DNA of 64,000 bases from Escherichia coli. Lineage in GTDB: Bacteria > Pseudomonadota > Gammaproteobacteria > Enterobacterales > Enterobacteriaceae. How positions within the stretch are numbered: position 1 is the first letter of the stretch; every line of letters begins with the position of its first letter. The position numbers were made by a program. The stretch lies in the NCBI RefSeq assembly GCF_013315695.1, contig NZ_CP054353.1, one strand, 5' to 3'. Positions 30,001 to 36,000 of the stretch are shown here, piece after piece.

Positions 30001-33000
30001 CCGGAACACCTTTACCCATGCTCAGTTATCGCCACAGCTTTCACGCTGGCAACCACGCCGACGTCCTTAAACATACCGTTCAGAGCCTGATCATCGAGTC
30101 GCTGAAAGAGAAAGATAAACCGTTTCTCTATCTCGATACCCACGCAGGGGCCGGGCGTTATCAGTTAGGCAGCGAACATGCCGAGCGTACCGGCGAATAT
30201 CTCGAAGGTATCGCCCGTATCTGGCAGCAGGACGATTTGCCTGCGGAGCTGGAGGCGTACATCAATGTGGTAAAACACTTCAACCGTAGCGGTCAGTTGC
30301 GTTATTACCCCGGTTCGCCGTTGATTGCTCGCCAGCTACTGCGTGAACAGGACAGCCTGCAACTGACCGAACTGCACCCGAGCGATTACCCGTTGCTACG
30401 TTCTGAATTTCAGAAAGACAGCCGTGCGCGCGTCGAAAAATCCGACGGTTTCCAGCAGATTAAGGCCAAACTGCCGCCGGTTTCCCGCCGTGGTTTAATC
30501 CTTATCGACCCGCCGTATGAAATGAAAACCGACTATCAGGCGGTGGTCAGCGGGATAGCAGAAGGCTATAAACGTTTCGCCACTGGCACTTACGCACTGT
30601 GGTATCCGGTGGTGTTGCGCCAGCAAATTAAGCGCATGATCCACGACCTGGAAGCGACCGGCATTCGCAAAATTCTGCAAATTGAACTGGCGGTGCTGCC
30701 AGACAGCGATCGCCGTGGCATGACCGCTTCCGGCATGATTGTGATTAACCCGCCGTGGAAGCTGGAACAGCAGATGAATAACGTGCTGCCGTGGCTGCAC
30801 AGCAAACTGGTTCCAGCAGGCACCGGGCACGCCACCGTAAGCTGGATCGTGCCAGAGTAATTGCAGCCATTGCTGGCACCTATTACGTCTCGCGCTACAA
30901 TCGCGGTAATCAACGATAAGGACAATATGTCATGACTAAACACTATGATTACATCGCCATCGGCGGCGGCAGCGGCGGTATCGCCTCCATCAACCGCGCG
31001 GCTATGTACGGCCAGAAATGCGCACTGATTGAAGCCAAAGAGCTGGGCGGCACCTGCGTAAATGTTGGCTGTGTGCCGAAAAAAGTGATGTGGCACGCGG
31101 CGCAAATCCGTGAAGCGATCCACATGTACGGCCCGGATTATGGTTTCGATACCACCATCAATAAGTTCAACTGGGAAACGTTGATCGCCAGCCGTACCGC
31201 CTATATCGACCGTATTCATACTTCCTATGAGAACGTGCTCGGTAAAAATAACGTTGATGTAATCAAAGGCTTTGCCCGCTTCGTTGATGCCAAAACCATT
31301 GAAGTCAACGGCGAAACCATCACGGCCGATCATATTCTGATCGCCACCGGTGGTCGTCCGAGCCACCCGGATATTCCAGGCGTGGAATACGGTATTGATT
31401 CCGATGGCTTCTTCGCCCTTCCTGCTTTGCCAGAGCGCGTGGCGGTTGTTGGCGCGGGTTACATCGCCGTTGAGCTGGCGGGCGTGATTAACGGCCTCGG
31501 CGCGAAAACGCATCTGTTTGTGCGTAAACATGCGCCGCTGCGCAGCTTTGACCCGATGATCTCTGAAACGCTGGTCGAAGTGATGAACGCCGAAGGCCCG
31601 CAGTTGCACACCAACGCCATCCCGAAAGCAGTAGTGAAAAATGCTGATGGTAGCCTGACGCTGGAGCTGGAAGATGGCCGCAGTGAAACGGTGGATTGCC
31701 TGATTTGGGCGATTGGTCGCGAGCCTGCCAATGACAACATCAACCTGGAAGCCGCTGGTGTAAAAACCAACGAAAAAGGCTATATCGTCGTCGATAAATA
31801 TCAAAATACCAACGTTGAAGGTATTTACGCGGTGGGCGATAACACGGGTGCAGTGGAACTGACACCGGTGGCAGTTGCTGCGGGTCGCCGTCTCTCTGAA
31901 CGCCTGTTTAATAACAAGCCGGATGAGCATCTGGATTACAGCAACATTCCGACCGTGGTCTTCAGCCATCCGCCGATTGGGACTGTTGGTTTAACGGAAC
32001 CGCAGGCACGCGAGCAGTACGGCGACGATCAGGTGAAAGTGTATAAATCCTCTTTCACCGCGATGTATACCGCCGTCACCACTCACCGCCAGCCGTGCCG
32101 CATGAAACTGGTATGCGTTGGACCGGAAGAGAAGATTGTCGGAATTCACGGCATTGGTTTTGGTATGGACGAAATGTTGCAGGGCTTCGCGGTGGCACTG
32201 AAGATGGGCGCAACCAAAAAAGACTTCGATAATACCGTCGCCATTCACCCGACGGCGGCAGAAGAGTTCGTGACCATGCGTTAAATGTTAAAGGGCTAAG
32301 AGTAGTGTGCTCTTAGCCCTTAGCTACGTTTCCGCTACCAGTTCAGAAGCTGAAGCAGAAAGCGGATCAGTTCCAGCAGCGCAATTAACGCCCCAAGAAC
32401 GATGATTGCTTTATCAATCACCCGTGTTCTCCATACGATGGAGTGAGAATGCATCCGCTTACTCATCCATTGCCTGTCACGGCGCATGCCCTATTGTTAG
32501 ATAATGGCATTCTCACTCCGGCCAGAGCATCAGTTAACGGCACCACCCGTACCACTGATCAGGACTTTGAAAGCGTTTATGCGCATTGCCAGAGTGAAAA
32601 TGCCTCAGAGCTAACTGGATAATCATACAGTATATTCAGGTTATAAAACCAGCATGTCCTTGCAATAGTTTCAGTATGGTATTAGCATTGATGCGTTAGA
32701 TGATGGCATTCTCACTCCAGCCAGAGCCACCAACTCAGGGCTGGAAAGTAAAAAACCGACGCAAAGTCGGTTTTTTTACATCCGGATTCGGACAAGGCTT
32801 GGTACGGCAGCGACCCGATGAAAGTATATCAATCCTCTTTCACCACCATGTATAGCAAACTGTCCCTCCGCCAGCTGAAGAAATCGCTAATTCTTGCAAT
32901 GTTAGTCACTGGCTAATAGTATTGAACCGTTAGATAAGAGCTCTCTCACTCCAGCCAGAGCCACCAACTCAGGCTGAAGAGTAAAAAACCGACGCAAAGT

Positions 33001-36000
33001 CGGTTTTTTTATGTCCTGATTCAGACCTCCTTTCAAATGAATACCCAACTCAAAATTCACACCTATTACCTTCCTCTGCACATACGAATTCGTTAAACCA
33101 TATATGTTTTTGACTTATCCGCTTCGAAGAGAGACACTAAGTGCAACAATCAGGAGCGCAATATGTCATTTCTGTTACCCATCCAACTCTTCAAAATTCT
33201 TGCCGATGAAACCCGTTTGGGCATCGTTTTACTGCTCAGCGAGCTGGGAGAGTTATGCGTCTGCGATCTCTGCACTGCCCTCGATCAGTCGCAGCCCAAG
33301 ATCTCCCGCCATCTGGCATTACTGCGTGAAAGTGGGCTATTGCTGGACCGCAAGCAAGGAAAGTGGGTTCATTACCGTTTATCGCCGCATATTCCAGCAT
33401 GGGCGGCGAAAATTATTGAGCAGGCCTGGCGATGCGAACAGGAAAAGGTTCAGGTGATTGTCCGTAACCTCGCCAGACAAAATTGTTCCGCAGACAGTAA
33501 GAATATTTGTAGTTAAAAAATTTATCTAAACACATATGAATATTCGAATGTGTTTTATCAAGGAGGCATGATGTTACTGGCGGGCGCTATCTTTGTCCTG
33601 ACCATCGTATTGGTTATCTGGCAGCCGAAAGGTTTAGGCATCGGCTGGAGTGCGACACTGGGCGCCGTACTGGCGTTAGTTACTGGCGTGGTCCATCCGG
33701 GCGATATTCCGGTGGTGTGGAATATCGTCTGGAACGCGACGGCGGCGTTTATAGCCGTCATTATCATCAGCTTGCTGCTGGATGAGTCCGGCTTTTTTGA
33801 ATGGGCGGCGCTGCACGTCTCACGCTGGGGCAATGGGCGCGGTCGCTTGCTGTTTACCTGGATTGTCCTGCTCGGTGCTGCCGTTGCAGCTCTGTTTGCC
33901 AATGATGGCGCGGCGCTTATTTTGACACCGATTGTCATCGCCATGCTGCTGGCTTTAGGGTTCAACAAAGGCACTACGCTGGCGTTTGTTATGGCGGCCG
34001 GATTCATTGCCGATACCGCCAGCCTGCCGCTTATTGTCTCTAACCTGGTGAATATCGTTTCGGCAGATTTCTTTAGCCTCGACTTTCGCGAATACGCCTC
34101 GGTGATGGTGCCGGTGGATATCGCTGCAATACTGGCTACCCTGGTGATGTTGCATCTCTATTTCCGCAAAGATATTCCGCAGAACTACGACATGGCGCTG
34201 CTAAAATCTCCCGCAGAAGCGGTTAAAGATCCTGCCACCTTCAAAACTGGCGGGGTTGTTTTACTGCTTCTGCTGGTGGGATTTTTCGTCCTGGAACCGC
34301 TCGGCATTCCGGTAAGCGCCATTGCGGCAGTGGGCGCGCTGATATTATTTGTCGTCGCTAAACGCGGTCATGCGATTAATACGGGTAAGGTGCTGCGCGG
34401 TGCGCCCTGGCAGATTGTCATCTTCTCGCTCGGCATGTATCTGGTGGTTTATGGCCTGCGCAATGCCGGATTAACGGAATATCTTTCTGGCGTACTCAAC
34501 GTGCTGGCGGATAACGGCCTGTGGGCGGCGACGCTCGGCACCGGATTCCTCACCGCCTTCCTCTCTTCTATTATGAACAATATGCCGACGGTACTGGTTG
34601 GCGCGTTGTCCATTGATGGCAGCACGGCATCTGGTGTCATCAAAGAAGCGATGGTTTATGCCAACGTAATTGGCTGCGATTTGGGGCCGAAAATTACACC
34701 GATTGGTAGCCTGGCAACGCTGCTCTGGCTGCACGTACTTTCGCAGAAGAATATGACTATCAGCTGGGGATATTACTTCCGTACAGGGATTATCATGACC
34801 CTGCCGGTGCTGTTTGTGACGCTCGCCGCGCTGGCGCTTCGTCTCTCTTTCACTTTGTAATGAGATACTGATATGAGCAACATTACTATTTATCACAACC
34901 CGGCCTGCGGCACGTCGCGTAATACGCTGGAGATGATTCGCAACAGCGGTACAGAACCGACCATTATCTATTATCTGGAAACTCCACCCACACGCGATGA
35001 ACTGATCAAGCTCATTGCCGATATGGGGATTTCCGTTCGTGCGCTGTTGCGTAAAAACGTTGAGCCGTATGAGGAACTGGGCCTTGCAGAAGATAAATTT
35101 ACTGACGATCGGTTAATCGACTTTATGCTGCAATATCCCATCCTGATTAACCGCCCGATTGTGGTGACACCGCTGGGAACTCGCCTGTGCCGCCCTTCAG
35201 AAGTGGTGCTGGAAATTCTGCCAGATGCGCAACAACGCGCGTTCACCAAGGAAGATGGCGAGAAAGTGGTTGATGAGGCGGGTAAACGCCTGAAATAGCT
35301 AAAGGGGGATATGCCCCCTTATTTGTTCTTCGTGGCTCCTTCGCCATCTGTTTTGCTGTTTACGCAGCACTCCTCACGTAAAAATTCAATTATCGCTTCC
35401 AGCATTGCGTATTGCGAAACACACATCAGCGTCCGACTCTCACGGTTTTGTTTGACCAACCCTACCGATACCAGTGCTGAAATATGGTGACTGAGTGTAG
35501 AGCCGGGTATCCCAAGCTGCTTTTGCAACTCACCGACCGGCAAACCTTGTTCCCCCGCTTTGACCAGATGCTTAAATATGAACAAACGGGTCGGGTGACC
35601 TAGCTCTTTCAGCGCTTTAGCAACTTCTTCCAACTGCATATGACTCCCCTCTGTCTGGTTGATATTTCGATAATACCAGAAATATCTTGATTTGAATTTC
35701 ATTTCGATTATTCTGGAAATATAGATTTATTCAATGAGGTTACGTATGAGTAGTTGGCTTGCGATGCTGCAAGATGCCGCAGAGATGTTTGTGTTTCTCG
35801 CCGTCGAGCTTTCTTTGCTGTTTATAGTGATTAGTGCCGGTGTCAGCCTGATAAGACAAAAGGTGCCAGACCATAAAATCCAGCAGATGATGGGGGCCAG
35901 AAAAGGGAGAGGCTATCTCCTGGCTGCTCTGTTGGGAGCCGTTACCCCGTTCTGTAGTTGCTCGACAATACCCATGTTACGTGGATTGTTATCAGCGAAA

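Follow-up and report, generated by a model that had tools for sequence, protein, structure and literature searches.

The dinQ/agrAB locus of Escherichia coli, a type I toxin–antitoxin system, is already known, and both its genetics and its structure have been characterised in strain K-12 (Weel-Sneve 2013, PMC3567139; Kristiansen 2016, PMC5066626). Its two small RNAs (sRNAs), AgrA and AgrB, have published matches to dinQ of 25/31 and 30/31, respectively. Only AgrB closes the Shine-Dalgarno (SD) sequence and blocks translation in vitro, whereas AgrA produces no change in reactivity to selective 2′-hydroxyl acylation analysed by primer extension (SHAPE) and no block of translation (PMC3567139; PMC5066626). 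Here we analyse a stretch of 64,000 nucleotides of E. coli (contig NZ_CP054353.1, assembly GCF_013315695.1), referred to throughout as the window. The spacer between gor and arsR in this window (positions 32285-33162, 878 nt) is very probably an allele of the chromosomal dinQ/agrAB locus in which the proximal sRNA unit, the counterpart of AgrA, would act as the antitoxin.

The order of the genes is gor (+), dinQ (−), two agr units (+) and arsR (+), so that the toxin gene is divergent from the sRNA genes. BLAST searches matched the spacer in 5,422 of 5,426 complete E. coli genomes, with 100% identity over the 878 nt to E. coli isolate AF3 (NZ_OZ547117.1) and 92.8% DNA identity to K-12 MG1655, and the RefSeq annotation of the matched region reads ‘damage-inducible type I toxin DinQ’. 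Together with this synteny and annotation, the identity of the locus follows from matches to Rfam AgrB and NCBIfam toxin_DinQ, from a collinear 331-nt transcript and from a 20-mer identical to the K-12 LexA operator, all described below. A sequence-only reading of the same DNA had named dinQ and AgrA/AgrB at this place, and the synteny, the two family matches and the RefSeq annotation bear it out.

Predicted pairing of the two Agr units with the dinQ leader

A 33-nt direct repeat is present in three copies in the spacer, at 32496-32528 in the dinQ leader and at 32695-32727 and 32929-32961 in the two plus-strand units. The second and third copies share 94% and 85% identity with the first. For the 18-nt core TCTCACTCCNGCCAGAGC, the 64-kb window has three occurrences, compared with 0.02 expected by chance. 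Agr unit 1 (32696-32779, +; 84 nt) is the positional orthologue of K-12 agrA and scores 108.1 bits with Rfam model RF02891 (AgrB), for which the gathering score is 40. Agr unit 2 (32930-33012, +; 83 nt) is the positional orthologue of agrB and scores 89.9 bits. Both match over their full length, with E-values of 1e-19 and 1e-15, and have the two hairpins and the Rho-independent terminator of AgrB; the Rfam alignment places a 1-nt deletion in hairpin 1 of unit 2. Inside each match lies the same 28-nt terminator, AAAAAACCGACGCAAAGTCGGTTTTTTT, with a run of seven T (32750-32777 and 32983-33010) and a folding energy of −13.2 kcal/mol. The sequence-only reading had described a repeat common to the dinQ leader and two plus-strand units, identical hairpin terminators followed by seven T, and the architecture of the agrA/agrB antisense RNAs; each of these has a counterpart in the elements just listed.

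The Agr target in the dinQ messenger (G88-A119; 32528-32497, −) includes a variable patch at 32503-32511, and it is here that the window departs from K-12. The window target matches unit 1 at 30 of 32 positions, with a predicted duplex energy of −58.1 kcal/mol and a cofold free-energy difference (ddG) of −35.1; the two exceptions are a G-U pair and an A-C mismatch, of which the mismatch also occurs in K-12 AgrB. With the distal unit 2, the match falls to 27/32, the duplex to −45.7 kcal/mol and the cofold ddG to −17.9. The same calculation for K-12 gives 31/32 and −58.2 kcal/mol for the distal agrB, and 25/32 and −42.7 kcal/mol for the proximal agrA. Unit 2 of the window pairs with the K-12 target at 30/32. 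The K-12 rule that the distal unit is the near-perfect antisense is reversed in the window. Five clustered substitutions in the target (32505, 32506, 32507, 32509 and 32510, corresponding to dinQ nucleotides 111, 110, 109, 107 and 106) change the patch from AAGAACTCT in K-12 to AATGGCATT, and together with substitutions in the 5′ regions of both Agr units they shift the near-perfect match from agrB to the unit in the agrA position. Because of this predicted pairing, and because target and antisense co-vary consistently in 29 other loci, we infer that this strain has its antitoxin in the proximal ‘AgrA’ unit and not in ‘AgrB’. The exchange of the cognate unit was absent from the sequence-only reading and is added by the present analysis.

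Both units carry candidate promoters. That of unit 1 (32660-32688, +) consists of a −35 hexamer TTGCAA (32660-32665), a 17-nt spacer and a −10 hexamer TAGCAT (32683-32688), and is identical to that of K-12. The promoter of unit 2 (32894-32922, +) has TTGCAA (32894-32899), a 17-nt spacer and TAGTAT (32917-32922), with hexamers conserved in K-12. A generic promoter and terminator scan reported no Agr terminators and no Agr or dinQ promoters. Its promoter threshold is 9/12 consensus matches, and the hexamers score 8/12; the terminators presumably escaped it as the A-run pairs with the T-run and leaves the scanner no free T tail. We take these omissions as a limit of the scanner’s rules and not as evidence against the features.

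Between the two units, at 32802-32854 (+), lies a degenerate duplicate of a stretch from inside gor (32017-32069), recovered as a direct repeat (D4) of 53 nt with 83% identity and a local alignment score of 61. A 32-codon open reading frame (ORF; 32818-32916, +) starts inside this copy, and its first residues, MKVYQSSFTTMY, mimic gor. The copy suggests that unit 2 originated by duplication of a larger block comprising the gor 3′ end, dinQ and agr, which later decayed.

Alleles of the recognition patch

To see whether the exchange is peculiar to this strain, 29 further intact loci were read directly. They were sampled from the BLAST rankings at regular intervals, and the set was completed by E. 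albertii and by two more genomes of Escherichia. In each of the 29, exactly one Agr unit is near-perfect (at least 29/32). This is the proximal unit 1 for the target alleles AATGGCATT, AATGGTATT (O157:H7) and GACGACTAT, the last group including E. albertii with its single Agr unit, and the distal unit 2 for the alleles AAGAACTCT (K-12 type) and GTGGGCATT. Estimated by arithmetic from BLAST coverage and identity bands, about 1,914-2,022 complete genomes carry the exact 49-mer with the window target allele and about 1,677 carry that of K-12, which makes the window allele about as common as that of K-12. The target 49-mer is missing from about 977 of the 5,426 complete genomes.

On balance, we favour the view that the dinQ/agr recognition patch, of approximately 9 nt (32503-32511 and its counterparts in the Agr units), varies within E. 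coli, where it has four or more co-varying specificity alleles, and that the cognate Agr unit switches between lineages, probably by gene conversion among the three repeats. This strain, about 40-45% of complete E. coli genomes and E. albertii would then all have the proximal unit as the active one, and the K-12 state would be one of several, possibly a derived one. We found no description of such a switch in the literature searched, although the search was incomplete and novelty is unproven. The database T1TAdb keeps the more stable of two Agr candidates. BLAST also returned a second place per genome, which was considered as a second agr locus and rejected: the additional hits are off-diagonal matches between the two Agr units, and genomes with a single unit show one place.

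Two other loci, from E. coli E1 (L012) and from a strain of sequence type 131 (ST131; L013), are deletion forms: at the place equivalent to window 32496-32982, the target repeat runs straight into the body of an Agr unit with its terminator. The deletion takes with it the dinQ promoter, the LexA box, leader nucleotides 1-87, the Agr promoters and one unit; arsR and arsB are missing as well. The promoterless dinQ coding sequence (CDS) is still annotated by the NCBI Prokaryotic Genome Annotation Pipeline (PGAP).

A scan of species-representative genomes (298 Gb) with a 15-base core gave mostly chance hits, as expected; only about ten were genuine loci of the dinQ, dql or agr type, belonging to Escherichia, Citrobacter, Hafnia and a small number of others. 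Among them, the dql loci of Hafnia paralvei (L049, 4140-4460), of L103 (972-1800) and of Citrobacter werkmanii (L016), in other Enterobacterales, keep the conserved flanks GTTAG...TCTCACTCC.G.CAGAGC. Their variable patch differs. In Hafnia paralvei and L103, the two with an identified target copy, target and neighbouring agr-like unit again agree in this patch.

The dinQ messenger, its operator and the peptide

The spacer is bounded upstream by gor (gorA; 30932-32284, +) and downstream by arsR (33163-33516, +). The full-length dinQ messenger, starting at +1 (window 32615), is predicted to cover 32285-32615 on the minus strand, and its length of 331 nt and first bases (G1 ... U16-U19 ... U44) match the published transcript (PMC5066626). 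The alignment with K-12 is gap-free from the gor stop codon to beyond the dinQ promoter, and therefore K-12 messenger position n corresponds to window position 32616-n; the numbering of the elements follows PMC5066626. All four sequences of the leader switch are present in the window allele. Sequence 1 (U16-C28; 32600-32588, −), UUUUCACUCUGGC, lies in a stretch identical to K-12, and is followed by the processing site at U44 (32572, −) and by sequence 2 (94-106; 32522-32510, −), which is contained in the Agr target. Sequence 3 (U167-U178; 32449-32438, −) precedes sequence 4 (182-187; 32434-32429, −), which includes the SD motif GGAG (G184-G187; 32429-32432, −) 7 nt upstream of the GTG start codon. 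A fourth, inverted and partial copy of the repeat, of 13-14 nt and 100% complementary to the direct copies (I3/I4), is found at 32439-32452. It overlaps sequence 3, placing that switch element within the repeat, and had gone unmentioned in the sequence-only reading. At the far end, directly after the gor stop codon, a 12-bp hairpin (SL9, inverted repeat I6; 32291-32321, readable on either strand) of −21 to −23 kcal/mol is the predicted dinQ terminator, and is also positioned to terminate gor.

In minimum-energy folds, the partner of sequence 2 is sequence 1 in the +1 RNA and sequence 3 in the +44 RNA. The predicted S1 duplex has −37.2 kcal/mol in the window and −30.4 in K-12, and the 2:3 duplex −25.2 and −20.3 kcal/mol, respectively. 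The target substitutions lengthen the 2:3 pairing from 9 bp in K-12 to 13 bp in the window (I4). Given this longer 2:3 pairing and the stronger S1 stem, the substitutions are compatible with every partner of sequence 2. On the opposite strand of the leader, a 57-codon ORF (32449-32622, +) is annotated as ‘hypothetical protein’ in some RefSeq genomes (for example WP_001296816.1 and WP_001362224.1) and carries no annotation in the genome identical to the window; most likely, the dinQ 5′ untranslated region was mistaken for a gene there.

The LexA-like site CTGGATAATCATACAG at 32615-32630, which the sequence-only reading had compared to an SOS box, is present and extends to a predicted operator of 20 nt, TACTGTATGATTATCCAGTT (32613-32632, −), with the same sequence as the operator of K-12. 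Both the dinQ −10 hexamer (TATGAT, 32622-32627) and the transcription start at 32615 fall within it. Among the 29 distinct CTG-N10-CAG sites of the window, this 20-mer ranks first, with 15/20 consensus matches. The K-12 dinQ operator has a heterology index of 4.83, and a second, weak operator with an index of 13.82 lies in the upstream region (PMC3567139). In the dinQ promoter region, a short way upstream of the main LexA box, the window differs from K-12 by substitutions at 32633, 32636 and 32655. Those at 32633 and 32636 may affect the second, weak operator. The second-best LexA-like site of the window, TACTGTTTCTTCATGCAGCA (50345-50364; 14/20), was set aside as a probable chance match, since it lies inside the hdeB CDS (50207-50545, −).

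The dinQ CDS (32335-32421, −) runs from a GTG start codon (32421-32419) through 28 codons to a TAG stop codon (32337-32335), and is the minus-strand ORF of about 28 codons that had been read as DinQ-like. Its product, M/VIDKAIIVLGALIALLELIRFLLQLLNW, a small hydrophobic peptide of the single-pass kind, reaches 53.9 bits with the NCBIfam equivalog model NF041472 (toxin_DinQ), against a cut-off of 30, and just 14.7 bits with DinQ_rel; Pfam has no model matching the peptide. Residues 1-27 are exactly those of K-12 DinQ. The last codons read AAC TGG TAG in the window and AAC TGA TAG in K-12, so that the additional Trp encoded by codon 28 (32338-32340, −) is, as read from the alignment, a mutation of the TGA stop codon to TGG, with TAG next. 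The sequence-only reading had suspected a strain variant in both the GTG start and the extra Trp. The latter stands, while GTG is the experimentally established DinQ start in K-12 (PMC3567139) and does not mark a variant. In the identical genome, PGAP calls the corresponding 87-nt CDS dinQ (WP_077250934.1), and the 28-residue protein, already named DinQ at the National Center for Biotechnology Information, is present on at least 1,000 contigs. The exact 45-mer around Trp28 was found in 30 of the 5,122 complete E. coli genomes having the site.

The near-identity of every element allows the mechanism worked out by experiment in K-12 (PMC3567139; PMC5066626) to be proposed for the window. LexA would repress the dinQ promoter through the operator at 32613-32632. 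Upon DNA damage, a 331-nt messenger would be made that is translationally inert, with sequence 1 paired to sequence 2 and the SD held in the 3:4 hairpin. Removal of the first 43 nt would let sequence 2 pair with sequence 3 and free the SD, and DinQ of 27-28 residues would be translated from GUG and insert in the inner membrane, causing depolarisation and lowering ATP. A constitutive antisense RNA of about 84 nt would pair through its 5′ 32 nt with leader nucleotides 88-119, displacing sequence 3 such that the SD closes again and a substrate for RNase III is created. In this strain, the antisense role would fall to the proximal unit in the agrA position (32696-32779), and the distal unit in the agrB position (32930-33012) would be a mismatched paralogue, the reverse of the situation in K-12.

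Weighing of the readings and related systems

Several points weigh against the proximal unit as sole antitoxin of a working switch. Unit 2 keeps its 27/32 matches, arranged in helices of 8 (9 with the preceding base), 2, 9 and 8 bp, and may still be active in part; the in vivo level of full-length dinQ RNA in K-12 was reduced by agrA as well as by agrB (PMC3567139). Minimum-energy folding of the window leader did not recover the 3:4 SD hairpin, choosing a competing pairing of sequence 3, although the 6-bp 3:4 duplex is intact in the sequence, at −8.0 kcal/mol. Transcription of either Agr unit, SOS induction, processing at +44 and toxicity of the Trp-extended peptide are all things that we infer here. 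The partial complementarity of unit 2, with its predicted duplex energy and its intact promoter and terminator, and the in vivo result from K-12 are also what would be expected if the K-12 assignment held by position, with the distal AgrB functional or both units redundant and the better match of unit 1 without consequence. We consider this unlikely, though it deserves to be kept in mind. The comparably mismatched K-12 AgrA had no effect on SHAPE reactivity or translation in vitro, and in the 29 other intact loci the near-perfect partner tracks the target allele and not the position, as would be expected under selection for a single cognate pair.

It is more improbable still that the locus is decaying in this lineage, Trp28 or other substitutions having left DinQ non-toxic or unexpressed and the RNA pairing a relic. 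The rarity of the Trp28 allele would agree with such a decay, and so would the loss of the dinQ promoter and leader in many E. coli, among them ST131-type strains, by deletion between the repeats, which makes the locus dispensable. Yet the peptide departs from that of K-12 by one added residue alone, the other 27 being identical; no damage is seen in the promoter, LexA box, SD, start codon, terminator or any of the four switch elements; and a near-perfect cognate antisense has been kept. The idea that the repeats are chance similarities, or a generic intergenic element resembling repetitive extragenic palindromes (REP-like) and unrelated to antisense control, has nothing in its favour beyond the intergenic location. 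We regard it as refuted by the excess of the core over the chance expectation, by the full-length Rfam matches of two copies and by the co-variation of the variable patch between target and antisense across strains and species.

As a locus, dinQ/agrAB adds nothing new. If the pairing predictions hold, however, the naming of agrA and agrB by position, and with it the equation of AgrB with the antitoxin, would be wrong for this strain. The same probably applies to much of E. coli, O157:H7-type strains and numerous other lineages among them. The co-varying alleles of toxin messenger and antitoxin RNA form a natural set for testing how much complementarity an Agr RNA needs, and the same set could test whether the second, mismatched Agr copy has any role.

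Compared with K-12 dinQ/agrA/agrB, the window has the same gor–arsR site, gene order, strands and 331-nt dinQ messenger, and an identical LexA box, sequence 1, sequence 3, SD and GTG start; the promoters and terminator of its two Agr units are also those of K-12. It differs in the five target substitutions, Trp28, the 1-nt deletion in unit 2 and the 13-bp 2:3 pairing. The dql genes, found on chromosomes and plasmids of Enterobacteriaceae (PMC5066626), share the leader architecture and, as seen here in Hafnia paralvei and L103, an agr-like unit whose variable 5′ patch matches its own target, but encode other peptide sequences at other genomic sites. The resemblance to tisB/istR-1 is one of regulation: a LexA-repressed toxin gene, an inert primary transcript processed at its 5′ end (at +42 in tisB and +44 in dinQ), and a divergent antisense RNA that acts far upstream of the SD and leads to RNase III cleavage (PMC5066626). 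There is, however, no sequence relationship between the two, and tisB has a ribosome standby site instead of a four-element SD switch (PMC5066626). In zor/orz, toxin and sRNA modules are likewise duplicated, with copy numbers that vary between strains, and the sRNA, whose gene lies upstream of the toxin gene and is divergent from it, pairs with a long 5′ untranslated region (PMC11264685). The toxin there belongs to another family, and dinQ/agr has duplicated only the sRNA while keeping a single toxin gene.

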